The notes: generated from the letters alone by a model not told the origin. A stretch of 64,000 bases of DNA from Candidatus Eiseniibacteriota bacterium (GCA_963728475.1 CAVSKL010000003.1:393573-457572); one strand, 5' to 3'; counted from the first letter of the stretch, positions 22,275 to 35,450 are shown. Program-made: numbers and translations.

Positions 22275-22394
22275 CCGCGCGAGGAAGAGCCGGCCGCGAT
22301 CGCGCCGGCCGGCTCCTGCGGACAGGTCCGGGAACGAGGTATCTCCGGGTAGCGCGGGGCGCACGATCCCGAAGCGGGACCCGGGTCCCGATGT

Positions 22395-23438
22395 TCAGCC
22401 CGGATTGAACGCAGCCTCGGCCTCCGCCCGCACCAGGTCCTCGCGATCCTCGTAACGCGGCGAGAAGTGGATCGGCTCCAGCACCCTCACCCCCGCCGCC
22501 CGCGCGATCTCGCCGGCGGCCCGGGCGGTGAGGTGGTTCTTGCGCTCGGCGTGGCCGCGGTCGGCGTGGAGGAACGCGGCCTCGGCGAAGAGCACGTCCA
22601 CCCCCCGGACCAGCTCCGTGATGCGCCCGCGATTGGCCGGGGTGTCCCGCACGTCCACCACGTATCCCAGCCCCTGGCCGGGCACGATCCGGACCGCCCG
22701 CTCCACCAGGTCTCCCAGCCGCACCTCGCGCCCGGTGAACCCGGCGCCGTCCCGCCATCGCGCGCGAAGCACGGTGCCGGCGCCCGCCCCGGCCAGGATC
22801 GCCGCGCGCGCCTCGCGCAGCCAGGGCCCGACGCTCAGCCCCATCTCCTCCAGCCGGCTCTTCCAGAAATTCACGTGCTCGCGCTCCCGCACCGCGAACC
22901 CCAGGCAGGGGATGTCGTGATCGAGAAGGGCCGCCCGGGCTTCGAGCGCGCCGCGATTGAAGAGCACTCCCCCGGGCAACGCGACCTCCTCCGAGGCCTC
23001 GGCGGGGAAGCCGGCCCGGAGGCGGAACACGGCGCGGCGACCGGCCGGATCCATCCCGGCGCCGCCGCCCGGGCCGACTTCGGTCACCGTGAAGGTGAGA
23101 TCCTCCTCGTAGCGGTGGGCCACGTTCCAGGTGTAGGCGGCGAGCTTGTGGCCGACCTTCTCGATCATCCCCGGCGGCCCGAACACCCGGAGCGAACGGC
23201 CCCGGCCCAGGGCCAGCCGCAGGAGCCAGTCGAAGTCCTGGAAGTGGTCCATGTGGGGGTGGGTGACGAAGATCTCGGTCACCCGGAGGAGCTTGCGGGG
23301 TGGAAGGCGGCGGAGATTCCCCAGGTCGAAGAGGAGCGCCCGTCTCTCGTACTGAACGTCCACGTAGAGGACCGGATCCTCGAACGGGCCGTTGACCAGG
23401 TGGGGATGAAGAAGAGGTTTCATGCGCGGTGCCTTCAT
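22395..23438 (-). CDS. MBL-fold metallo-hydrolase (RNase Z / ElaC-like)
   Basis: VTHPHMDHFQD (HxHxDH) motif. ~340 aa. Alternative start at 23423. Confidence 0.7.
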   Translation of the reverse strand: MKAPRMKPLLHPHLVNGPFEDPVLYVDVQYERRALLFDLGNLRRLPPRKLLRVTEIFVTHPHMDHFQDFDWLLRLALGRGRSLRVFGPPGMIEKVGHKLAAYTWNVAHRYEEDLTFTVTEVGPGGGAGMDPAGRRAVFRLRAGFPAEASEEVALPGGVLFNRGALEARAALLDHDIPCLGFAVREREHVNFWKSRLEEMGLSVGPWLREARAAILAGAGAGTVLRARWRDGAGFTGREVRLGDLVERAVRIVPGQGLGYVVDVRDTPANRGRITELVRGVDVLFAEAAFLHADRGHAERKNHLTARAAGEIARAAGVRVLEPIHFSPRYEDREDLVRAEAEAAFNPG

Positions 23439-23519
23439 CCCATGATCGCACGCCGGGAGCGGGGAGGGGACCGGGTCCCGGAACCCGGAAGCGCGCAGTC
23501 ACTTGTGGCGCACGGGCTT

Positions 23520-23541
23520 GGGTCAAATAACCCCTTGACCC
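23520..23541. promoter_or_regulatory. Perfect 7-bp inverted repeat GGGTCAA-N8-TTGACCC overlapping a TTGACC(-35)...TATAAA(-10) promoter-like element upstream of the marR-ablAB cluster. Candidate MarR operator.
   Basis: Read in sequence (gggtcaaataaccccttgaccc ... ggtataaac). Lies ~110-130 nt upstream of the MarR start. Confidence 0.3.
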
Positions 23542-23670
23542 GGCCTCGGTCGTTTGTGGTATAAACATCAGGACACGAATGATTCTGACTGAAATGGCAT
23601 CGGCCCCGGGGTGGGGCGGAGCGGCGCGCGCTCCCCGCGGGGGGCGAGCGAATCGGGGGGAGCCACGGAG

Positions 23671-24201
23671 ATGGAGGATGCGGCGGTGAAACCCAGGGGC
23701 GAGTCCCCCGCCGGTTCGCGCTACGACGTGCGCATTCTCCAGGCGCTCCGGCGGATCATGCGCGCGGTGGAGATCCACTCGCACAAGCTTTCCGCCACCT
23801 ACCGGGTGACCGCTCCCCAGCTCGTCTGCCTCCTGGCCCTGCGGGACGACGGCCCCCTCACTCCCACCTCCATCGCGCGCCGGGTGTCGCTCAGCGCGAG
23901 CACGGTGGTGGGGATTCTCGACCGCCTGGACGAGAAGGGGCTGGTGCGGCGCGTGCGCGACACCCACGACCGCCGCCTGGTCCTGGTCTCGGTGACCCCG
24001 GAAGGGGAGCGGGTGTGCCGCGAGGCCCCCTTGCCCCTTCAGGGAACCCTTGCCGAGGCGCTCACGAACCTGTCCGTCGACGAGCAGGCGCTGATCGCCC
24101 GGTCGCTGGAACGCGTGGTGGACCTCATGGAAGTGGGACATCTTCCCGCCGCGCCGTTCCTGGAGAGCGGCCCCATCGACGCCGATTCCGGCGACAGGTA
24201 A
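23671..24201 (+). CDS. MarR-family transcriptional regulator
   Basis: wHTH core ...LTPTSIARRVSLSASTVVGILDRLDEKGLVRRVRDTHDRRLVLVSVTPEG... is a typical MarR. Start placed at MEDAAVK (track ORF begins 20 aa upstream). Confidence 0.8.
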   Translation: MEDAAVKPRGESPAGSRYDVRILQALRRIMRAVEIHSHKLSATYRVTAPQLVCLLALRDDGPLTPTSIARRVSLSASTVVGILDRLDEKGLVRRVRDTHDRRLVLVSVTPEGERVCREAPLPLQGTLAEALTNLSVDEQALIARSLERVVDLMEVGHLPAAPFLESGPIDADSGDR

Positions 24202-24222
24202 GACCGAGAGGAGAAGAGATCG

Positions 24223-25713
24223 ATGAACGCCAAGGACGCCGGTGCCCTCGTGGACGCCGCCGAAATCACCGCGCCCGTGACCGTGGCCGAGGTCCTGGAA
24301 TCGGCGGACCGGGTGCCGCAGCTCCAGGCCATCGCCGGGGTGGAGGTCCCCGAGCCGCTCAAGGAACCGGTGGAAGCCGCCGACCTGGCCCACCGCCGGC
24401 TGGACGAGAGCGAGTTCTGGAGGCGGATCCCCGCGTTCCGGAAGGTCTCCCGCGAGGAGTTCCTGGACCACCGGTTCCAGAACCGGCACAGCGTGACCCG
24501 GGTGGAGGATCTGGCCAAGCTCGTCCGCGACCTGGTGAGCGGGGAGTTCCTGGACGACGTGCGGCGGGGGATGGCGGCGGCGCCCATGAACATGCGCCTC
24601 TCGCCGTATCTGATGAGCCTGGTCGACTGGAGCGCGCCCTACGAGGATCCGCTCCGCATCCAGTTCATTCCGGTGGCCTCGACCCGGCTCCCCAACCATC
24701 CCAAGCTGGAGCTGGACTCGCTCCACGAGCAGGACGATTCGCCCACCCCGGGCCTGGTTCACCGCTACCCGGACAAGGCGCTCTTCCTCCCCCTCGACGT
24801 GTGCCCGGTCTACTGCCGCTTCTGCACCCGGAGCTACGCCATCGGCGGCGACACCGACACCGTGGACAAGGTGAACTACCGCCCGGTGGAGGCGCGCTGG
24901 GAGAAGGCGTTCGCGTATCTCGCCTCCCGCCCCGAGGTCGAGGACGTGGTGGTCTCGGGCGGGGACGCCTACCACCTGCCGCCGGCGCGGCTCAGGAAGA
25001 TCGGCAAGACGCTGCTCTCCATTCCCCACATCCGGCGCATCCGCTTCGCCACCAAGGGTCCGGCGGTGATGCCGATGAAGATCCTCACCGACCGGGCCTG
25101 GACCGAGGCCCTGGTGGAGGTGGTGGACTTCGGCCGCCACCGCTCCAAGGAGGTCGCCCTCCACACCCACTTCAACAGCCCCCGCGAGATCACCGCGATC
25201 ACCCGCGAGGCCATGGACCTGCTCTTCCGGCGCGGGGTCAAGGTGCGGAACCAGAGCGTTTGCATCCGCGGGGTGAACGACAGCCCCGGGGCCATGATCT
25301 CCCTGGTCAAGCGGCTCTCCTACCTGAACGTCCAGCCCTACTACGTCTACCAGCACGACATGGTGAAGGGGGTGGAGGACCTGCGCACCCGCGTCGCCGA
25401 CACCGTGGAGGTGGAGCGCCACGTCCGAGGCGCCACCGCCGGTTTCAACACCCCGACCTTCGTCACCGACGTGCCGGGCGGCGGGGGGAAGCGCGACGTC
25501 CACAGCTACGACCACTACGACGAGACCACCGGGGTGAGCGTGTACCGGAGCCCGTCGGTGGACGAGGAGAAGGTCTACCTCTACTACGATCCGATTCCGC
25601 TCCTCCCCGATGAGGGGCGCCGCCGCTGGGCCGATCCCGCCGAGCACGAGAAGATCGTGGGCGAGGCGCTGGCCGCGGCCGGCCTCGGGGACCTGACGCG
25701 GGCGGTGGAGTGA
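24223..25713 (+). CDS. ablA: Lysine 2,3-aminomutase (KamA family radical SAM enzyme, AblA-like)
   Basis: CPVYCRFCTRSYAIG radical-SAM CxxxCxxC motif characteristic of KamA. ~40-aa N-terminal extension. Stop abuts the start of the GNAT gene. Confidence 0.85.
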   Translation: MNAKDAGALVDAAEITAPVTVAEVLESADRVPQLQAIAGVEVPEPLKEPVEAADLAHRRLDESEFWRRIPAFRKVSREEFLDHRFQNRHSVTRVEDLAKLVRDLVSGEFLDDVRRGMAAAPMNMRLSPYLMSLVDWSAPYEDPLRIQFIPVASTRLPNHPKLELDSLHEQDDSPTPGLVHRYPDKALFLPLDVCPVYCRFCTRSYAIGGDTDTVDKVNYRPVEARWEKAFAYLASRPEVEDVVVSGGDAYHLPPARLRKIGKTLLSIPHIRRIRFATKGPAVMPMKILTDRAWTEALVEVVDFGRHRSKEVALHTHFNSPREITAITREAMDLLFRRGVKVRNQSVCIRGVNDSPGAMISLVKRLSYLNVQPYYVYQHDMVKGVEDLRTRVADTVEVERHVRGATAGFNTPTFVTDVPGGGGKRDVHSYDHYDETTGVSVYRSPSVDEEKVYLYYDPIPLLPDEGRRRWADPAEHEKIVGEALAAAGLGDLTRAVE

Positions 25714-26610
25714 ATGGGAGCCCGGCGACGACGGACCGCGGTCCCCACCCGGCGGTTCACCCTGGATCTCCCCTCGGGGGAACGCGACGCGGTGGCCGAC
25801 CCCCACAACCGCCGCCTCAAGGTCTACGGCCTGATCGACAAGGACGCCCAGGGGTTGAAGCCCAAGTCGCTCCTCGAGGCCGCCTCGGAGGGGGACGCGC
25901 TCACCAAGCTCACCCTCTACGCCCGCCCCGGCGAGCCCGTCGTCTGGAGCGACCACGGCTTCCGGGAAGAGGCCCGGATCCGCGGGTTCTTCGGCGACGA
26001 CGCCGACGCGGTGCTCTGGGCCGCCTACACCGACTCCGCCCGCGCCCGGGCGGGTGACGCCGGGGAACTCGACCGCGTGGTGGAGACCGCGCGGGGGAAG
26101 GGTCCCGCCCGGCCCGCGCTTCCCGAGGGGTGGCGGAGCGAGCCGGCCTCGGAGAACGACGCCGGGGAGCTGAGCGACCTCCTCGCCTTCGTCTTTCCCG
26201 ACTACCCGAGTTCGATCGACCCCGGCCACCTCGCCCGGCAGATCCGGATGCGGGCGAATCTCTTCCGCTGGGTGCGGGACGGCGACGGGGAGATGGTGGC
26301 GGCGGCCTCGGCCGAGATCGACCACCGGCGGCGGTCGGCGGAGATGACCGACTGCGCCACCCGCCCCGAGGCGCGCGGCCGCGGGCTCATGGTGTACCTC
26401 CTGCGCGCGCTCGAGGACGATCTCGCCGCCGGCCCCGGCATCACCGGTCTCTACACCCTGGCCCGGGCGGGGGAGGTGGGGATGAACTGCGCGTTCGCCA
26501 AGCTCGGCTACGACTACACCGGGCGCCTGGTCAACAACTGCCGCATGCCCGGCGGATGGGAGTCCATGAACGTGTGGTGCCGGTCCGGCGTTGCCTGGGA
26601 GCGGAACTGA
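25714..26610 (+). CDS. ablB: Beta-lysine N6-acetyltransferase-like GNAT protein (AblB-like)
   Basis: ~300 aa with a C-terminal GNAT acetyl-CoA motif (TRPEARGRGLMVYLLRALE). Immediately follows the KamA gene (TGAATG junction). The pairing is known from ablAB operons. Confidence 0.65.
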   Translation: MGARRRRTAVPTRRFTLDLPSGERDAVADPHNRRLKVYGLIDKDAQGLKPKSLLEAASEGDALTKLTLYARPGEPVVWSDHGFREEARIRGFFGDDADAVLWAAYTDSARARAGDAGELDRVVETARGKGPARPALPEGWRSEPASENDAGELSDLLAFVFPDYPSSIDPGHLARQIRMRANLFRWVRDGDGEMVAAASAEIDHRRRSAEMTDCATRPEARGRGLMVYLLRALEDDLAAGPGITGLYTLARAGEVGMNCAFAKLGYDYTGRLVNNCRMPGGWESMNVWCRSGVAWERN

Positions 26611-26614
26611 GCCG

Positions 26615-28147
26615 ATGACGCGCGGGCTCCGGGCGGTGCTGGCGCTGGCGGTCGCGATTCCGGGGCTCGTCCTGGGGGCGCCGGCGTCCCGCGCCGAAGC
26701 CCCGCTCCGGCTCGCCATGTCCGGCGCGTTCCGGCCCTTCTCCAGCACCGATCGCGAAGGGACCCTGGTCGGGTTCGACGCCGACGTCTCCCGCGAGGTG
26801 GCGCGCCGGCTCCACCGCGAGCCGGTCCTGGTCCAGACCGACTGGGCGGGGATCCAGGCCGGCCTGCACGCCGGGAAGTACGAGCTCATTTGCGGCTCCA
26901 TGGCCATCACCCCCGCGCGGCTCACCACCATGGACTTTTCGCTCCCGTACTACGTGAGCGGGGCGCAGGTGTTCGTGCGCCGGGGGATGACGTCCTTGCA
27001 GGGGGCCAGGATCGGGGTTACCGAGGACTCCACCTACGAGCGCTGGATCCACGACCACCCCGCCGACTTCCCCGCCGCGGAGGTGCTGCGGTTCGGGAGC
27101 GAGGCCGGGATCGTGGCCGCCATGAACGCGGACAAGATCGACGCCTTCGTGTCGGACCGGATCGTGGGCGGTTTCTACGTCCAGCAGGGGAGCGCCGGCG
27201 GCATCGTCCCCCTGGGCGGCCTGCTCTACCGCGAGGCGTGCGGGATCGCCGCGCGGCAGGACGAGGGAGCGCTGGTGCGCCGGGTCAACGCCGCGCTCTT
27301 CGCCATGATCCAGGACGGCACCTACGCCCGGATCTACCGGAAGTGGGTGGGGAGCCCCCCCGACCTGGACGTGCTGCTGGGCGCCTGGGGCAGGTTCGCC
27401 CCCATCGTCCCCGCGGTGGGTGCGGACGGGACCGAGGCTCCCGCGAGCGCGAAGCCGGCCTTCGCCGAGCGGGTGCGGGGCATCGTGCCGCTGCTGGCCC
27501 GGGGAGCGGTGCTGACCCTGGAACTCTCGCTCTCGACCGCGGTGCTGGCGCTGGTGCTCGGCTCGCTGGTGGGGGTGGGGACGGTCTCGGGGACGGGCTG
27601 GATCCGCGCCGTCGCCAACGCCTACGTCTGGGTGATCCGGGGGACGCCGCTCCTGGTCCAGCTCTTCATCAGCTACTTCGCGGCGGCCACCGCGGTCAAT
27701 CGCCTGGCCGGGACCGAGGTGGTGGGGGCGTTCGGGGCGGCGTTGATCGCGCTGGTGGTGAACACCGCCGCCTACAACGCCGAGACCCTGCGGGGCGGGA
27801 TCAATGCGGTGCCGCGCGGCCAGTGGGACGCGGCGGCGTCGCTGGGCATGAACCGGGGCAAGATCCTTCGCCGGGTGGTGCTCCCCCAGGCCTTCCGCGA
27901 TTCGCTCCCCTCGCTCGGCAACAACCTGGTGGTCCTGATCAAGGACACCTCCCTGGTCGGCGCCATCACCCTGATCGAACTCACCTACGCCGCCCGGAAC
28001 GTGGTCTTCCAGACCGGGCAGCCGTTGCTGCCGTTTTTGCTCGCCGCGGGGTTCTACCTGGTCATCATCTCCGGGCTGACCCTCGCGGTGAACGCCTGGG
28101 AGCGGCGGCTGGGCCGCTCGCGGCAAGCGGTGGGGAGTAACCTGTGA
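26615..28147 (+). CDS. Polar amino-acid ABC transporter, fused periplasmic substrate-binding domain + permease
   Basis: Signal peptide, then an SBP_bac_3-like domain (RLAMSGAFRPFSSTDREGTLVGFDADV...). C-terminal half carries the His/Glu/Gln/Arg permease motif (NTAAYNAETLRGGINAVPRGQWDAA). Confidence 0.8.
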   Translation: MTRGLRAVLALAVAIPGLVLGAPASRAEAPLRLAMSGAFRPFSSTDREGTLVGFDADVSREVARRLHREPVLVQTDWAGIQAGLHAGKYELICGSMAITPARLTTMDFSLPYYVSGAQVFVRRGMTSLQGARIGVTEDSTYERWIHDHPADFPAAEVLRFGSEAGIVAAMNADKIDAFVSDRIVGGFYVQQGSAGGIVPLGGLLYREACGIAARQDEGALVRRVNAALFAMIQDGTYARIYRKWVGSPPDLDVLLGAWGRFAPIVPAVGADGTEAPASAKPAFAERVRGIVPLLARGAVLTLELSLSTAVLALVLGSLVGVGTVSGTGWIRAVANAYVWVIRGTPLLVQLFISYFAAATAVNRLAGTEVVGAFGAALIALVVNTAAYNAETLRGGINAVPRGQWDAAASLGMNRGKILRRVVLPQAFRDSLPSLGNNLVVLIKDTSLVGAITLIELTYAARNVVFQTGQPLLPFLLAAGFYLVIISGLTLAVNAWERRLGRSRQAVGSNL

Positions 28148-28920
28148 GCGAGCCTGCCGTGCCCGCGACCCCGCCCGAGATCGAGGTGCGCGGGCTCCGG
28201 AAGCGCTTCGGCGCCCTGGAGGTGCTCCGGGGGGTGGACTTCGAGGTCGCCCCTCACGAGGTGGTGGCGCTGGTGGGGCCGTCGGGCTCGGGCAAGAGCA
28301 CGCTCTTGCGCTGCATGAACCTGCTCGAGATCCCCGACGGCGGCGTCCTGCGCTTCGAGGGGGGCCCGGTGGAGTACGGCACCATGTCCTCGAGGGCGAT
28401 GGCCGCCCACCGCACCCGCATGGGGATGGTGTTCCAGCACTTCAACCTCTTTCCCCACCGCACCGCGCTCCAGAACGTGATCGAGGGGCCGGTGCACGTG
28501 CTGGGGCGGCCGCGCCGCGAGTCCGAGGCCCGCGGGCGCCGGCTCCTGGACGAGGTCGGCCTCGGCGACAAGGTCGACGCCTGGCCGTCGCGGCTCTCCG
28601 GCGGCCAGAAGCAGCGGGTGGCCATTGCGCGGGCCCTGGCCATGGAGCCGGCGGCGCTGCTGCTGGACGAGGTGACCAGCGCCCTCGACGTGGAGATGAT
28701 CTCCGGGGTGAACGACCTCCTGGCCAAGCTCGCCGCCGGCGGGATGACCATGGTGGTGGTCACCCACGACCTCGCCTTCGCCCGCGGGGTGGCGCGGCGG
28801 ATCTGCTTCATGGACGAAGGGCGGCTCCTGGAGACGGGGACGCCGGAGGAGGTGCTGGACCGCCCGCGCCACCGGCGGCTCCGCGACTTCCTGGGCTCGG
28901 TGCTCTCGCTCCGGGGGTGA
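28144..28920 (+). CDS. Polar amino-acid ABC transporter ATP-binding protein
   Basis: Walker A GPSGSGKST, signature LSGGQKQRVAIARAL, Walker B LLLDEVTSALD. GTG start overlaps the upstream gene. Confidence 0.9.
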   Translation: MSEPAVPATPPEIEVRGLRKRFGALEVLRGVDFEVAPHEVVALVGPSGSGKSTLLRCMNLLEIPDGGVLRFEGGPVEYGTMSSRAMAAHRTRMGMVFQHFNLFPHRTALQNVIEGPVHVLGRPRRESEARGRRLLDEVGLGDKVDAWPSRLSGGQKQRVAIARALAMEPAALLLDEVTSALDVEMISGVNDLLAKLAAGGMTMVVVTHDLAFARGVARRICFMDEGRLLETGTPEEVLDRPRHRRLRDFLGSVLSLRG

Positions 28921-28938
28921 CCGGGGTCCGGACGCCGG

Positions 28939-30672
28939 TCAGGATTCCTCCGGTGCCCGGGGTGCCCGGCCCCGGAACGTCCGCGAGGCGAGCATGAGCG
29001 CGATCCCGTAGGCGGCCAGCCCCACGAAGAGCGTCACCGGCCGGCCTCGGGGGAGATCCTCCACCACCAGCTTGATCCCTCCGAGCGCGATCACCGGATA
29101 CACCAGCCACGCCAGCTCCCGGAGCCGGGTCCGCCGGCCCGCGACCACCAGGGCCACCGCGCACCCGGTGAGCACCACGGAACGGATCGCGGCCATCACG
29201 TGGGGCGCGGGCGCGGGGAGGATCGTCCGTCCCAGCCGGACTCCCAGCGCCGCCGCGGCCAGGAGCACCAGCGCTCCCAGGACCAGTCGGGGAAGGAGGC
29301 GCGGCCAGGGAAGGGCGGGAGCGCGCCGGTCCGACGCACAGATCGCCCACGCGATCGCCGCCGCCCCCGCGGCCAGGGCCGCGGACAGGCCGAACGGCGG
29401 CCACGCATTCCTTCCCGAGGCCCCGAACGCGGTCCCCGCGGCGGAGAAGAGACCCCCCTGCGCCGCCGCCGCCGCCAGGTAGACCGCGCCGTGGGCGCGC
29501 AGGGTGTGCCGCCGGAGGAGGGCGGCGGCCAGCGCCGAGATGACTCCGAGCCCGCCCCAGAGCGCGGTGAGGACGGGGCCCCCGGCCACCAGGGCGCAGC
29601 CGGCCAGCGCGAACAGGAGCCCCAGCCACCCGTAGAAGTAGAAGTTCCGGCGGGTCTCCGAACGCCGCTCCACGAACGCGAAGGCGAGAGCGTAGGCGGC
29701 GGCGGCCGCGGCCAGGGCGACCCCTCCCAGGACCCCCGCCCCTTCGCCGCTCGCGCGGACGATCCGCACCGAGCCGCCGAACCCCAGCACCAGCGCGGCC
29801 ACCGCCTGGACTACCTCGAACGGCGCCACCTCCCGGCGGCGGGCCAGGGTGCGGAGCCCGATGCTTCCCAGGTACACCGCGAGCAACGCCACCGCCACGA
29901 GCTCCACCGAGGCGGGGCCCAGATCGGGGTAGGCGCGCCGCGCGGCCGCGGGGCCGGTGAGAAGGAAGACGGCCAGGAGCACCATGAGGTCGGAGGCGAC
30001 CGCGGCCGGCCAGCGCAGGAGCCGCCAGTCGCGCCGGTACGAGACCCAGAGCGTGCCCAGGCCCAGCGCGATGGTGAAGCCGGTGAAGGGGATGAGCGCG
30101 CGGGTGGAAACCGCCAGCGCCCACGCGGCGCCCACCGAGGCCCCGGTGAAGATCCAGGCCGCGCCCCGGAGCCCCCGGCGGTCGGCGATCAGGAGCCCTA
30201 GTCCGGCGACGGCCGCGATCCCCGCCGCCGCCGCCCACGGGCCCAGGAGCCGGAAGCGCGCGGTGGTTTCCCAGAGCAGGGGAAAGGCCACCAGCGCGCC
30301 GGTGAGCGCGAAGAAGGAAGCGCTCAGCCGCCGGGTCGTCGCCGCCGGCCGGGCGGCGAGCCCGATCCAGACCAGGGAGTAGAGGAGTCCGAGCGCCACC
30401 CCCAGCTCCCGGGAGATCAGGCCTTCATCGGTGACCGCCCGGAGCAGGAAGGCGCCGCCCAGGCCGAGCACGGTCCGGCCGGTCACGGTAAGCGCGGAGG
30501 CGAGCCCACCCTCGCCGCCGGCCACCGCCGGAAGGACGCCGGCGGGGTCCGGGGTCCGGACGGAGGCGGGGCGGGCTCCCCGCTCCAGGGCCTCCAACCG
30601 GGCTTCGAGCGCCGCCACCGTCCGGGCAAGGCCGGCGACCGTCGACTCCAGGCGATCGAACTCGTCGTTCAT
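28939..30672 (-). CDS. DUF2339-type multi-pass membrane protein with N-terminal coiled-coil
   Basis: N-terminal MNDEFDRLESTVAGLARTVAALEARLEALE followed by a Pro-rich linker and >12 predicted TM helices. Confidence 0.55.
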   Translation of the reverse strand: MNDEFDRLESTVAGLARTVAALEARLEALERGARPASVRTPDPAGVLPAVAGGEGGLASALTVTGRTVLGLGGAFLLRAVTDEGLISRELGVALGLLYSLVWIGLAARPAATTRRLSASFFALTGALVAFPLLWETTARFRLLGPWAAAAGIAAVAGLGLLIADRRGLRGAAWIFTGASVGAAWALAVSTRALIPFTGFTIALGLGTLWVSYRRDWRLLRWPAAVASDLMVLLAVFLLTGPAAARRAYPDLGPASVELVAVALLAVYLGSIGLRTLARRREVAPFEVVQAVAALVLGFGGSVRIVRASGEGAGVLGGVALAAAAAAYALAFAFVERRSETRRNFYFYGWLGLLFALAGCALVAGGPVLTALWGGLGVISALAAALLRRHTLRAHGAVYLAAAAAQGGLFSAAGTAFGASGRNAWPPFGLSAALAAGAAAIAWAICASDRRAPALPWPRLLPRLVLGALVLLAAAALGVRLGRTILPAPAPHVMAAIRSVVLTGCAVALVVAGRRTRLRELAWLVYPVIALGGIKLVVEDLPRGRPVTLFVGLAAYGIALMLASRTFRGRAPRAPEES

Positions 30673-31100: not shown

Positions 31101-31475
31101 GTGAACGACGGCCGCGTCCGGCTCGTGGAGTTCCTCCGCTGGCTGACGGCGCCGGAGAGCCCGCCGCCGGAGTCCCGGGCCGCCTCTCCCGCCCGGGCCA
31201 CTCCCGGGGAGCGATCCTTCCCCGGGTGGCTCCTCGGAAACGACCCGCCCGATCCCGCTCCCAAGGCGGCCGCCGTCCCCCCGCCGGCCGGACCCGGTTT
31301 CTGGGCCTGGCTTCTCCGCCCCGAGCGGCCCGGAACGGCGAGTCCCGGTCCCCGCCCCGGCGGACCCGGTTTCTTCTCCTGGCTCTTTCTTCCCGAGAAC
31401 CCCGACCGGGCGGGGGACCGCCCCCGCCCCGGCGCTTCGGACCCTCAACGACGAGGTGGTCATGAGACCCGATAG
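31101..31475 (+). CDS. Hypothetical Pro-rich protein with three FxxWLxxPE repeats
   Basis: GTG start 5 nt after a GGGAAGGGAGGG RBS. Three repeats: RLVEFLRWLTAPESPP / GFWAWLLRPERPG / GFFSWLFLPENPD. Its 3' end overlaps the cytochrome gene start. The upstream track ORF (from 30873) uses AT-rich codons and is probably non-coding. Confidence 0.35.
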   Translation: MNDGRVRLVEFLRWLTAPESPPPESRAASPARATPGERSFPGWLLGNDPPDPAPKAAAVPPPAGPGFWAWLLRPERPGTASPGPRPGGPGFFSWLFLPENPDRAGDRPRPGASDPQRRGGHETR

Positions 31476-31947
31476 CCCCCTCTTCCACGCCAAGCACGTC
31501 TTCCGCGCGCTCATCCTCTTCCTGCTGGGCGTGGTCGCCCTGATCGTGGTGCGGTCGCTCTTGGTGCCGCCCTCCTGGGGCGCCTACGGCCACTACCGGG
31601 GGGACAGCCCCGCGGAATACAGCGCGCTCCCGGTGAGCTACCAGGGGCCCGCCTCCTGCGCCGCCTGCCACGACGAGGAGTCCAAGGCCCGCGACGCGGG
31701 CGTCCACCACACGGTGAGCTGCGAGGTCTGCCACGCCCCCCTCGCCCGGCACGTGAAGGACGGCGACGTGATCGCGGAGATGCCGGTGGCCAAGACCGAC
31801 GCCCTCTGCCTGCGCTGCCACCTCGAGCTGGATGCGCGGCCCGCCACCTTTCCGCAGGTGCAGCCCAGGAAACACATCGAGGAGCAGGGCGGCACCGACG
31901 GCCCCACCGCCTGCTTCGACTGCCACAACCCCCATTCGCCGCTTTGA
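31462..31947 (+). CDS. Membrane-anchored tetraheme cytochrome c (NapC/NirT/NrfH-like)
   Basis: One N-terminal TM helix (ALILFLLGVVALIVV) and four CxxCH motifs (CAACH, CEVCH, CLRCH, CFDCH) within ~110 aa. GAGG RBS before the ATG. Confidence 0.8.
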   Translation: MRPDSPLFHAKHVFRALILFLLGVVALIVVRSLLVPPSWGAYGHYRGDSPAEYSALPVSYQGPASCAACHDEESKARDAGVHHTVSCEVCHAPLARHVKDGDVIAEMPVAKTDALCLRCHLELDARPATFPQVQPRKHIEEQGGTDGPTACFDCHNPHSPL

Positions 31948-31976
31948 GCGAGGCCACTCCGATGGAGGATCGCACC

Positions 31977-32774
31977 ATGTCCGATGAATGCAACCGGATT
32001 GGAACCGAGGCTCCGGCGGCCCCTCCCTCCCGGCGGGATTTCCTGAGACGGGCGGCGGCGGCCGCGGCCACCATGGCCGCCTACGGGGTGGTGGGACTCA
32101 TTCTCCCCGACGACGCGGCCGGGCTCGAGACCGCCGGCTACGACTGGAACCAGCACACCTGGGTCTACCTCATCGACACCACCAAGTGCATCGGCTGCGG
32201 CTCGTGCGTGCGGGCGTGCCGGGAGGAGAACGACGTTCCCGAGGGCATGTTCCGCACCTGGGTCGAGCGCTACGAGATCCCGGTGAACGGCGAGACGAGG
32301 GTGGACTCGCCCGACGGCGCCGCCGAGGGATTCGGCCCCGACGCCTCCGGCAACGCGGTGCGCAAGGCCTTCTTCGTGCCCAAGATGTGCAACCACTGCC
32401 GCGAGACCCCCTGCATCCAGGTCTGCCCGGTGGGCGCCTCCTATCGCACCCGGGACGGAGTGGTGCTGGTGGACAAGACCCACTGCATCGGCTGCGGCTA
32501 CTGCGTGCAGGCCTGCCCCTACGGGAGCCGGTTCCTGGATCCGCGCACCCGCACCGCCGACAAGTGCACCTGGTGCTACCACCGGATCACCAAGGGGCTG
32601 AAGCCGGCCTGCGTGGAGGTCTGCCCGGTGGGAGCGCGCATGTTCGGCGACCGCCGGAACCCCGACGATCCCATCAACGACATCCTGGCCACCAAGCGCG
32701 TGATGGTCCTGCAGCCCGAGCTCTTGACCAAGCCGCAGTGCTTCTACCTGGGTCTGGACATGGAGGTCCGGTGA
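31977..32774 (+). CDS. Tat-exported 4Fe-4S ferredoxin-type subunit (NrfC/PsrB/HybA family)
   Basis: Twin-arginine signal SRRDFLRRAAAAAATMAAYG. Four Cys clusters (CIGCGSCVRACREEN, CNHCRETPCIQVCPVGA, CIGCGYCVQACPYG, CTWCYHRITKGLKPACVEVCPVGA). Alternative starts at 31944 and 31962. Confidence 0.85.
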   Translation: MSDECNRIGTEAPAAPPSRRDFLRRAAAAAATMAAYGVVGLILPDDAAGLETAGYDWNQHTWVYLIDTTKCIGCGSCVRACREENDVPEGMFRTWVERYEIPVNGETRVDSPDGAAEGFGPDASGNAVRKAFFVPKMCNHCRETPCIQVCPVGASYRTRDGVVLVDKTHCIGCGYCVQACPYGSRFLDPRTRTADKCTWCYHRITKGLKPACVEVCPVGARMFGDRRNPDDPINDILATKRVMVLQPELLTKPQCFYLGLDMEVR

Positions 32775-33961
32775 TGATTCCCGAGCTGACCGGTTATCTC
32801 TTTCCCAACGACATCCACATCCAGTGGAGCCTGATGATCGTGCTCTACCCCTACATCACCGGGCTGGTGGCGGGCGCGTTCTTGGTCTCCTCGCTCTACC
32901 ACGTGTTCGGAAAGAAGGAGTTCGAGCCCCTGGGCCGGTTCGCCCTGGCCACCGCCTTCTGCTTCCTGCTCGTGGCCACCTTTCCCCTCCTCAACCACCT
33001 TGGGCATCCGGAACGGGCGTTCAACGTGGTGGTCACCCCCAACTTCTCCTCGGCCATGGCCGGGTTCGGAATCCTCTACACCAGCTACTTCCTGCTGCTG
33101 CTGCTGGAAATCTGGTTCGTGTTCCGGGGGGACATTGTGGCGCGGGCGGTGGAGGGGCGCGGTCTCAAGCGGGCGTTCTACTCGGTGCTCGCCCTCGGGG
33201 TCTACGACGTTTCGCCCAAGGCTCGGGACCTGGACCGCCGGATCATCCGGGTGCTGGCCGCGGTGGGGATCCCCGCCGCCTGCCTGCTCCACGGCTACGT
33301 GGGCTTCATCTTCGGCGCGCTCAAGGCCAACCCCTGGTGGTCCACCCCGCTCATGCCGGTGATCTTCCTGTTCTCGGCCATGGTCTCGGGGATCGCGCTC
33401 CTTATCGTGCTCTACCAGGTGGCGATGAGGCTCAAGGGCTGGCCCATCGACCAGGCCGCGATCTCGGCCCTGGCTCGGTGGCTATGGCTCTTCCTCATCA
33501 TGACCGTGACCCTGGAACTCCTCGAGATCATGACCCTGAGCTACATGAAGGCGGAATCGTGGGAGGTGATCAGCCACCTTCTCACCCACCAGCTCTCGAT
33601 CTCGTTCATCGCCATCCAGATGGTACTGGGTGGGCTTATCCCGCTGATCCTGCTCATGTTCGTGGTGCTCCTGGACCGCTACATGCATCCGACGATCCGG
33701 AACACGCTCACCTTCATCTCGTCCTCGATCCTCCTGGTCCAGGTGATCTCCATGCGCTGGAACGTGGTGATCGGCGGCCAGATGTTCTCCAAGAGCATGC
33801 GCGGCTTCCGCGAGGCCTACGTGCCCGGCCTTTTCGACAAGGAGGGGATCGCGGCGGCGGTGGTCATCCTCATCCTGCCCTTCATCCTGCTCCTGGTGTT
33901 CGAACGGGTGCTGCCGACTTTTTCGCACCTCAACCCGCCGGCCGGAGCCCCGGAAGCCTGA
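32774..33961 (+). CDS. NrfD/PsrC-family integral membrane quinone-interacting subunit
   Basis: ~395 aa, 8-10 TM helices, the N-terminal MIPELTGYLFPNDIHIQWSLMIVLYPYITGLVAG is typical of NrfD/PsrC. ATG overlaps the upstream stop (TGATG). Confidence 0.85.
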   Translation: MIPELTGYLFPNDIHIQWSLMIVLYPYITGLVAGAFLVSSLYHVFGKKEFEPLGRFALATAFCFLLVATFPLLNHLGHPERAFNVVVTPNFSSAMAGFGILYTSYFLLLLLEIWFVFRGDIVARAVEGRGLKRAFYSVLALGVYDVSPKARDLDRRIIRVLAAVGIPAACLLHGYVGFIFGALKANPWWSTPLMPVIFLFSAMVSGIALLIVLYQVAMRLKGWPIDQAAISALARWLWLFLIMTVTLELLEIMTLSYMKAESWEVISHLLTHQLSISFIAIQMVLGGLIPLILLMFVVLLDRYMHPTIRNTLTFISSSILLVQVISMRWNVVIGGQMFSKSMRGFREAYVPGLFDKEGIAAAVVILILPFILLLVFERVLPTFSHLNPPAGAPEA

Positions 33962-34058: not shown

Positions 34059-35450
34059 CTAGCGCGCGGCCCCCGTCGGGGGGCCGCCCACCCGTCCCCC
34101 CCGGGCCCGGAAGTAGGCCCGGGTCTCCCGGGCCACCAACCCGCTCAGGAGAAGGAGCCCGATCAGGTTCGGAAGCGCCATGAGCCCGTTCATGACGTCG
34201 GAGAGCGTCCACACGAACTCCAGGCTTCGCACCGTGCCCACGAAGGCCGCGATCACGAAGAGCACCCGGTAGGGAACCACCGTCCATGATCCCAGCAGGT
34301 ACTCGATGCTCTTCTCGCCGTAGTAGCTCCACCCCAGGAGGGTGGAGAAGGCGAAGGTGGCGAGCCCCACCGCCACCAGCCAGCCTCCCCAGCTGCCGGG
34401 AAGCCCGTCCCGGAAGGCGAGCTGGGTGAGGTTCGCTCCGTCCAGCCCCGACCGCCAGGCCCCGGTGGCCACGATGGTGAGCCCGGTGAAGGAGCAGACC
34501 ACGATGGTGTCGATGAAGGTCTGGGTCATGGATACCAGGGCCTGGGTGGCGGGTTCGCTGGTCTGGGCGGCGGCGGCGGCGATGCCCGCCGAGCCCAGGC
34601 CGGACTCGTTGGAGAAGATGCCTCGGGCCACCCCGAACCGGATCGCCCGGGCCACCGCCACCCCCGCGAACCCCCCGGCGGCGGCGGCGGGGGTGAAGGC
34701 GTCGCGCAGGATGAGCGCGATCGCGCCGGGGATCGCCCCGGCATGGAGCGCGAGGGCCACCCCGGAGCCGGCCATGTAGAGCACGATCATGATCGGCACG
34801 AAGAAGCCGGTGAAGCGGCCGATGGACTTGATCCCGCCCAGGATCACCGCCCCGGCGGCCAGCGCGATCACCACCCCGGTGAGCCACATGGGGATGTGGA
34901 AGGAGTGCTCGAGAGCGGAGGCCACCGAGTTCGACTGCACCATGTTGCCGATCCCGAACGCGGCCACCGCCGCGAAGAGCGCGAACAGGATGCCGAGGGC
35001 CTTGCCCAGCGGCCCGCGGATCCCCTGGGTGAGGTAGTACATGGGACCGCCCGCCTGCTCGCCCCGCCGGTCCACCGTCCGGAATCTTACGGAGAGGAAT
35101 GCCTCGGAGTACTTGGTGGCCATCCCGACCAGTCCGGTCATCCACATCCAGAACATGGCTCCGGGGCCGCCGGCGGAGATCGCGGTGGCCACCCCCACGA
35201 TGTTCCCGGTCCCGACCGTGGCCGCGAGCGCGGTCATGAGCGCTTGGAAGTGGGAGATGTCCCCCTCGGCGCCCGGCTCCCGGCGCACCACCAATCCCAA
35301 GTAGAGCGCGCCCCAGAGCTTGGAGAACTGCACCCCGCGAAGCCGCAGGGTGAGAAAGAGTCCGGTCAGGAGCAGGAGCGGGATGAGCAGCCACGGTCCC
35401 CAGATGAAGCCCGAGGCCTGGTTGAGGAGTTCGGTGAGCCGGGTGAACAC
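34059..35450 (-). CDS. Alanine/glycine:cation symporter (AGCS family)
   Basis: ...[55 protein letters not shown]... is a conserved AGCS signature. ~460 aa, 11 TM helices. Confidence 0.9.

Follow-up and report, generated by a model that had tools for sequence, protein, structure and literature searches.

Comparison with described systems

N-epsilon-acetyl-beta-lysine is usually regarded as a solute of methanogens, with scattered bacterial cases. As cited in PMC9337991, the two-enzyme route to this compound was established by ablA/ablB genetics in methanogens (Pflueger 2003), and the compound is present in some bacteria (Triado-Margarit 2011); kamA and ablB are widespread in bacteria (PMC11337218). 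Here, we analyzed a five-gene cluster in a 64,000-nucleotide stretch of a Candidatus Eiseniibacteriota genome (GCA_963728475.1 CAVSKL010000003.1:393573-457572; GC content ~70%), which as a whole is referred to as the window. The cluster encodes a MarR-family regulator, a KamA-family aminomutase, a GNAT acetyltransferase of the AblB type, and the fused binding-domain/permease protein and ATPase of an ATP-binding cassette (ABC) importer. We consider it fairly probable that this operon makes and recaptures N-epsilon-acetyl-beta-lysine as a compatible solute under an EctR-like repressor.

The cluster shares with ablA-ablB of Methanosarcina mazei and other methanogens, and with yodP-kamA of Bacillus, the arrangement of an AblB-type GNAT directly behind a KamA-family aminomutase, together with the presumed chemistry and the catalytic and lysine-binding residues. 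In contrast to these systems, the aminomutase of the window falls outside the AblA/KamA equivalog (262 vs 525 bits), lacks the zinc cysteines and has other N- and C-terminal parts. Furthermore, the classical abl clusters in the papers surveyed contain neither a dedicated importer nor a MarR regulator, while the window has both; the Methanoperedens abl operon carries an MscS-like channel gene instead (PMC11337218).

In terms of design, the closest analogue is the ectoine gene cluster (ectR; importers EhuABCD, TeaABC/UehABC or EctI), which likewise combines an EctR-like MarR protein, biosynthetic genes and an ABC or sodium:solute symporter (SSS) importer. EctR is a repressor binding over the -10 box (PMC5924519). 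In Planctomycetota, every ect cluster has an importer of the product alongside it, of the ABC, TRAP or SSS class, and ectR is present in nearly all of them (PMC13342039). The window MarR resembles proteins in the EctR position (36% identity), and the permease and ATPase lie near the Ehu models, under their cutoffs. On the other hand, the solute and enzymes are different, the regulator gene is co-directional and first instead of divergent, and the importer has a binding domain fused to the permease.

The pathway itself is known, whereas an unnamed aminomutase branch, a near-constant importer and an ectoine-type regulator would be new. In the literature searched, neither this long aminomutase clade nor an importer-containing abl cluster is described, and no paper shows the long clade as the usual AblB partner outside Firmicutes, a near-obligatory importer or an EctR-like regulator.

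Organization of the gene cluster

Five co-directional open reading frames (ORFs) lie on the plus strand at 23.4-28.9 kb, with a third-position GC content of 0.90-0.98, so that they look like real genes in DNA of this composition. Our analysis confirmed an intact cluster with every element where the original prediction had placed it: the MarR regulator (a PF01047 protein) precedes kamA as the first gene, the GNAT follows, and the fused SBP-permease and the ATPase come directly after. The profile hidden Markov model matches of the cluster proteins are far beyond chance.

23671-24201, plus strand: MarR-family regulator, EctR/CosR type (176 aa; PF01047, E 5.6e-15)
23611, plus strand: alternative in-frame GTG start of marR, which would make a protein of 196 aa
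24223-25713, plus strand: KamA-family radical-SAM/PLP aminomutase (496 aa; TIGR00238)
25714-26610, plus strand: AblB-type GNAT (298 aa; TIGR03827 at residues 28-290, PF00583 at residues 172-266)
26591, plus strand: alternative TTG start of the fused permease
26615-28147, plus strand: fused SBP_bac_3 and BPD_transp_1 protein (510 aa; PF00497 and PF00528)
28144-28920, plus strand: ABC ATPase without an extra regulatory domain (258 aa; PF00005, E 1.6e-32)

The ATG at 23671 was picked as the marR start from the alignment with L001, one of the two closest related loci. The intergenic spacing along marR-kamA-ablB-permease-ATPase is 21, 0, ~4 and -4 nt: the ATG of the GNAT gene comes immediately after the kamA stop codon, the aminomutase and AblB genes being adjacent and co-directional, and the first 4 nt of the ATPase gene are shared with the end of the permease gene, its stop codon included. 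The neighbouring downstream gene, encoding a DUF2339 membrane protein, is convergent with the cluster. Because the genes abut or overlap and this neighbour is convergent, the cluster is read as a single operon.

The aminomutase and its acetyltransferase partner

The KamA-family protein carries DVCPVYCRFCTRSY at residues 192-205, including the CPVYCRFCTR motif noticed in the original prediction, and passes TIGR00238 (KamA-family radical-SAM proteins, subfamily level) with 226 bits at a cutoff of 199.2. The comparison with TIGR03820 (AblA, equivalog) that had been proposed earlier gave 261.8 bits at a cutoff of 525.4; the protein thus fails this model, although it is still the best-scoring family model, and belongs instead to a distinct KamA clade. 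The glutamate (TIGR04368) and arginine (TIGR04468) 2,3-aminomutase models gave 200.9 and 202.4 bits, respectively, neither reaching its cutoff (650 and 600). The clade as a whole lies below the cutoff of every named KamA-subfamily model, i.e., AblA, glutamate, arginine, EpmB and AblA_like_2.

Membership in the KamA family would also allow an EpmB-like role in the modification of EF-P, or a supply of beta-lysine for an antibiotic. However, the EpmB model TIGR03821 scores lowest of the family models (153.9 bits, cutoff 369.3), and the protein does not cluster with EpmB/YjeK, the outcome named in the original prediction as speaking against it, sharing 32% identity with E. coli EpmB. No efp, epmA, nonribosomal peptide synthetase or other biosynthetic genes occur nearby, and the pairing with AblB is conserved. 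Family scores and gene context effectively refute both roles.

The only significant relative of solved structure is the Clostridium subterminale lysine 2,3-aminomutase (LAM; PDB ID: 2A5H), with E 2e-67 and 39.8% identity over 362 residues. Likewise, 2A5H was the sole significant Foldseek match (E 6e-24) of an AlphaFold (AF2) model of the protein with a mean pLDDT of 77. Following 2A5H, the active site was defined by the CxxxCxxC iron-sulfur motif, the PLP-binding Lys337, the carboxylate-binding Arg134, and Asp293 and Asp330, which bind the epsilon-amino group of lysine. Residues C194/C198/C201, R203, D379, D416 and K423 of the window protein align with C125/C129/C132, R134, D293, D330 and K337 of LAM. 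All catalytic and lysine-binding residues of 2A5H are therefore kept, and they are invariant across 20 members of the clade.

In contrast to this agreement in the active site, the inter-subunit zinc site of the C. subterminale enzyme is gone, with Ser at the position of Cys268 and a 73-residue C-terminal tail without cysteine, and lysine-fermentation genes are absent from the surroundings. A beta-rich C-terminal domain (residues 423-485), which is confidently modelled, stands where classical LAM has its zinc-binding tail. At the other end, an N-terminal extension of ~70 residues is conserved in the clade, with P43, H57, R58 and W66 invariant.

Public databases hold a large set of proteins of ~490 aa from many phyla that are 64-78% identical to the window aminomutase and are annotated at most as 'KamA family radical SAM protein'. 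In a tree of representatives clustered at 50% identity, the window group was split from the classical aminomutases in 100 of 100 bootstraps, while the supports for the exact clade were low (6-46%). The scores on TIGR03820 separate in the same way, with 248-285 bits for the window group and its clade relatives compared to 638 and 564 bits for the classical representatives P0174 and P0198. Judged by these comparisons, the enzyme is a member of a distinct, unnamed and well-conserved 'long' KamA subfamily. We infer that it acts as a lysine 2,3-aminomutase, an assignment that draws on the conserved aspartates and the AblB partner and not on close homology.

The GNAT encoded by the next gene matches TIGR03827 (AblB, equivalog) with 209.3 bits (cutoff 205.1) over profile positions 6-264 of 266, and this is its sole NCBIfam match. 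The scores of the GNATs in syntenic relatives range from 190.8 to 339 bits, those of the window's nearer relatives being 191-219 bits. GNATs adjoining members of this aminomutase clade reach 273-339 bits in Bacteroidota, Phycisphaerae, Marinimicrobia, Gemmatimonadota, Calditrichota and Sumerlaeota. The earlier assignment of a ~300-aa AblB-type GNAT, for which TIGR03827 had been proposed as the check, is borne out by these values, and no clustering with unrelated acetyltransferases, its named counter-indication, was seen. A structure search returned no solved structure of the AblB-type GNAT family. By its family membership, the protein would be a beta-lysine N-epsilon-acetyltransferase.

Both enzymes bear on the idea that the aminomutase uses another amino acid (ornithine, arginine or another basic one), or the GNAT another amine, giving a related acetylated beta-amino acid. 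Such a shift would suit a clade that fails every named KamA-subfamily model and separates from the classical lysine aminomutases in 100/100 bootstraps, with a different C-terminal domain lacking the zinc site and a 70-residue N-terminal extension, and it would suit a GNAT only marginally over the AblB cutoff. However, the two Asp residues specific to the lysine side chain do not vary within the clade, and the partner GNATs are strong AblB matches in most phyla. Ruzicka and Frey reportedly found in 2007 that both lysine-specific Asp residues are replaced in glutamate 2,3-aminomutase. We regard a different substrate as improbable.

At two related loci (L064 3066-3560 and L067 8438-8950), the place of the two-part AblB after kamA is taken by a short GNAT (164-170 aa), perhaps an alternative acetyltransferase.

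Conservation of the cluster among relatives

A scan of one genome per species yielded 80 loci encoding the long aminomutase clade. The closest are from Candidatus Eisenbacteria genome bins (KamA 78-79% identical); further loci were found in Acidobacteriota, Gemmatimonadota, Planctomycetota, Bacteroidota, Calditrichota, Marinimicrobia, Krumholzibacteria, Fibrobacteraceae, Fimbriimonadaceae, Sumerlaeota and Thermithiobacillus. For synteny counts, we used the 46 loci with at least 3.5 kb of upstream and at least 4.5 kb of downstream sequence, which cover about ten phyla.

An AblB-type gene lies beside the long-clade kamA in 38 of these 46 loci, and 37 of the 38 also contain an importer gene. The importer is a fused binding-domain/permease ABC protein in 11 loci and an SSS protein in 26 (PF00474; nearest model PutP, far under its cutoff). 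An importer without AblB occurs in none of the 46 loci, and marR is upstream in 29 of them. The MarR regulator and the ABC importer of the window hence do go with the cluster, as originally suggested. Five gene orders were observed: marR-kamA-ablB-ABC (as in the window), marR-kamA-ABC-ablB, marR-kamA-SSS-ablB, marR-kamA-ablB-SSS and SSS-ablB-kamA. Since one importer class is swapped for an unrelated one in an otherwise constant cluster, the importer is likely a working part of the system. The sole well-flanked marR-kamA-ablB locus without an importer is L059 from the cultured Thermithiobacillus tepidarius DSM 3134, and a third importer class sought there was not present within its flanks.

A second survey was seeded with the importer. 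Of the six homologues considered (58-70% identity), a single one is part of a full cluster; another three adjoin an AblB-type GNAT but no kamA gene, and the remaining two have neither in their vicinity. With four of the six next to an AblB-type GNAT, the link of the importer to AblB appears no weaker than its link to the aminomutase.

The near-constant importer also bears on a catabolic or scavenging function, in which imported lysine or beta-lysine would be acetylated as the first step of degradation. The Barker laboratory is said to have described such a beta-lysine pathway in Pseudomonas B4, in which 6-N-acetyl-beta-lysine is converted to 3-keto-6-acetamidohexanoate. Both importer classes are uptake systems, as this function would demand. 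However, neither the operon nor its flanks contain a transaminase, thiolase, deacetylase or other downstream catabolic gene, and no catabolic gene recurs among the related loci examined. Moreover, the regulator is of the type controlling solute synthesis, and many of the 80 loci come from marine or saline-habitat lineages according to their record titles. A degradative role is accordingly very improbable.

Several related loci deserve separate mention. The three importer homologues beside AblB-type GNATs without an adjacent aminomutase are L089 (5114-8240), L091 (5001-8215) and L093 (5001-8291), with GNAT scores of 192-281 bits on TIGR03827; either kamA lies elsewhere in these genomes, or the GNAT-importer pair acts on an imported substrate. 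At L090 (1841-7310), the genes upstream of a 70%-identical importer encode a B12-binding radical-SAM protein together with a TrpB-like PLP enzyme rather than KamA and AblB, and this may be a different amino-acid-modifying cluster sharing the importer family. L088 (6001-8330), from a Geobacteraceae genome bin, has the importer pair but neither kamA nor ablB within 6 kb of it; Pelobacter carbinolicus, which is related to its host, has been reported to carry a predicted ablA/ablB pair. L010 and L011 are two complete kamA-ablB-ABC clusters on two contigs of one Acidobacteriota bin (KamA 69% and 67% identical to that of the window), reflecting either a true duplication or a mixed bin. At L060 (2529-8425) from Marinimicrobia, ABC and SSS importers are both present, upstream of ablB-kamA.

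The importer and its candidate ligand

By family and domain arrangement, the importer is of the polar-amino-acid type with a GlnPQ-like architecture. As in GlnPQ of Lactococcus lactis, the permease carries the fused binding domain at its N-terminus and the ATPase is separate, and GlnP binding domains are among the best solved matches, next to AncQR (an ancestral Gln/Arg binder), a Thermus amino-acid ABC binding protein and LAO-BP. In contrast to GlnPQ, which has two binding domains, the window importer has one, and the pocket residues differ. An identical 510-aa fused protein exists in a public collection. No substrate-specific NCBIfam model, including the lysine/arginine/ornithine and histidine models, reaches its cutoff for the importer proteins; the nearest models of the ATPase are TcyN, EhuA and GlnQ, all under cutoff.

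To compare the pockets, 14 cluster-linked binding domains, which form two subfamilies with 31-35% mutual identity, were aligned with E. coli ArgT and HisJ. The residues that bind the amino-acid head group (LAO numbering) are conserved: Arg77, Asp161, Ser70 and Thr121. In place of Asp11, which pairs with the lysine epsilon-ammonium group in LAO-BP, all 14 domains have Ser or Thr. Positions 14, 52 and 122 are aromatic (Phe/Tyr14, Trp52 and Tyr/Phe122), and the same holds in both importer subfamilies. Such a pocket would fit a ligand with an uncharged tail, e.g., an acetamide, better than lysine, which weakly argues against lysine as the ligand.

The original prediction had proposed that the importer brings in the lysine precursor. 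In this case, the same biosynthetic pathway would be supplied with L-lysine, or with N-epsilon-acetyl-L-lysine. The binding domain does belong to a polar/cationic amino-acid family, with LAO-BP, HisJ and the Thermus protein among its best solved matches, and it conserves the Arg, Asp, Ser and Thr of an alpha-amino-acid head-group site. A near-obligatory importer (37/38 loci) would be sensible if precursor supply were limiting, and the AblB-importer pairs without an adjacent kamA would fit uptake of the GNAT substrate. However, the replacement of Asp11 by Ser/Thr in 14/14 domains, the aromatic residues at 52 and 122, and the failure of the lysine/arginine/ornithine and histidine models to reach cutoff all tell against this proposal. 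In addition, the importers of the best-studied analogue, the ectoine clusters, carry the product solute (PMC13342039). Lysine uptake by this importer is possible, but precursor supply as its function is not favoured and seems to us rather unlikely.

The regulator and the upstream region

The MarR protein is 36% identical over 154 aa (E 3e-25) to a MarR protein encoded divergently from ectABC-ask in Qingshengfaniella, and three of the four plasmid-borne MarR relatives inspected are divergent from ectABC-ask, i.e., in the EctR position. Its placing in the EctR/CosR subgroup derives from these sequence and neighbour-gene comparisons, not from a curated EctR model. Three elements were considered upstream of marR.

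23520-23541, no strand assigned: perfect palindrome GGGTCAA-N8-TTGACCC, whose right arm is the -35-like TTGACC (23535-23540)
23535-23565, plus strand: candidate promoter, with TTGACC, a 19-nt spacer and TG-N-TATAAA (extended -10 type, 23557-23565); putative function
23549-23586, no strand assigned: candidate MarR operator around the -10 box and likely transcription start, with ACACGAATGATT (23573-23584), which is conserved, and TCGTTTGTG (23550-23558) as its imperfect inverted partner

TTGAC of the -35 box and GTGGTAnAAA of the -10 region are conserved with the Eisenbacteria loci L001 and L002. A consensus promoter scan reported no site here, owing to the 19-nt spacer and the final A. The palindrome had been pointed out before; it is present and perfect, and its right arm forms the -35-like box, but it does not hold up as a conserved element. 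The window contains 177 perfect inverted repeats with 7-nt arms and 0-12 nt spacers, and at least one such repeat arose in 13% of the shuffles of the 173-nt intergenic region, so that the palindrome alone is not above chance. Of 25 homologous upstream regions, one contains the arms of the palindrome, and the left arm falls within a 19-nt stretch (23520-23538) that is absent from L001 and L002, the two closest loci. As a conserved operator, the palindrome was rejected on these grounds. The window has two CTTG copies (GGGCTTG...CCCCTTGAC), as if a short stretch had been inserted or duplicated locally at the -35 box.

The motif TTCGTG/CACGAA occurs upstream of marR in 18 of the 25 related loci (random same-locus controls, 12.6%), and ATTCGTG/CACGAAT is found in 7 of 25 (controls, 1.6%); the controls are mostly coding sequence of higher GC content, which makes this enrichment indicative only. 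Longer palindromes of the CACGAAT type are found in L002, L049 and L074. Three alphaproteobacterial ectR-ectA intergenic regions showed no obvious motif in common with the candidate operator region of the window.

In the marR leader, downstream of the likely transcription start and ahead of the 23671 ATG, a G-rich block GGGGTGGGGCG (23608-23618) is conserved in both Eisenbacteria loci. A permissive Rfam search of 22300-29200 revealed no known RNA element and no riboswitch, the Na+, c-di-AMP and lysine classes included, and gave two chance-level matches only, and the leader (23572-23675) folds no better than its shuffles (z = -0.07).

Proposed function of the operon

Taken together, gene content, protein families, conserved residues, synteny and motifs suggest a substrate, a product, an osmotic role, a repressor mechanism and an importer ligand as follows. 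The aminomutase would convert L-lysine to beta-lysine by radical-SAM/PLP chemistry. Using acetyl-CoA, the AblB-type GNAT would then acetylate the epsilon-amino group of beta-lysine to yield N-epsilon-acetyl-beta-lysine. The EctR-like MarR protein, the product of the first gene, most likely acts as a repressor of its own promoter via the CACGAAT-type motif around the -10 box and transcription start, from which it would be released under stress. Encoded at the end of the operon, the GlnPQ-type importer most likely takes the acetylated solute back up or scavenges it, in the manner of the importers of ectoine clusters. With respect to the original prediction, this retains the core of its reading, while the match to the AblA model, the palindrome as operator and the import of lysine are not upheld.

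A number of observations weigh against this function. The aminomutase attains only half the AblA cutoff, and the long clade is farther from the classical lysine aminomutases than those are from the glutamate and arginine aminomutases, so that the substrate cannot be read from homology alone; the literature searched shows no experimentally tested member of the clade. The GNAT clears the AblB cutoff by 4 bits only, and the GNATs of close relatives fall just under it (L061 190.8, L092 200.1 and L091 191.8 bits). With respect to the importer, all ligands of the alpha-amino-acid head group are kept, and they would suit lysine or N-epsilon-acetyl-lysine at least as well as a beta-amino acid; several genomes, moreover, have the importer and AblB without an adjacent kamA. 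Finally, the 19-nt promoter spacer is unusual, the control set limits what the motif counts can say, and nothing in the window points to salt regulation.

A wider proposal is more tentative, and we put it forward as a possibility somewhat short of an even chance. The cluster-linked ABC and SSS transporters may be the first dedicated uptake systems for N-epsilon-acetyl-beta-lysine or a related acetylated diamino acid. They would be part of a self-contained synthesis-recapture module with the long KamA clade and an EctR-like repressor, which might be the main route, as opposed to classical AblA, across FCB, PVC, Acidobacteriota and Gemmatimonadota. If true, the capability would be widely shared by uncultured bacteria of many phyla from soil, marine and saline habitats, and annotation overlooks it because the aminomutase carries no label beyond 'KamA family radical SAM protein'. 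This would also provide concrete candidate N-epsilon-acetyl-beta-lysine transporters and extend the EctR-type design of repressor, synthesis genes and importer to a second solute beyond ectoine. The gain would lie in better annotation and a testable transporter hypothesis; this is mainly an annotation and comparative-genomics result and introduces no new principle.

Surrounding genes

Upstream of the cluster, an RNase Z-like hydrolase gene lies on the opposite strand and is unrelated to it. The farther flanks contain other unrelated genes, encoding a TonB C-terminal domain protein, a sortilin/BNR protein, an M13 peptidase and multihaem cytochrome/4Fe-4S proteins. Downstream, at 31456-33961 and 34059-35450, there are genes for a multihaem cytochrome c and a 4Fe-4S dicluster protein, a long membrane-protein ORF and, on the minus strand, a sodium:alanine symporter gene, none of them related to the cluster.

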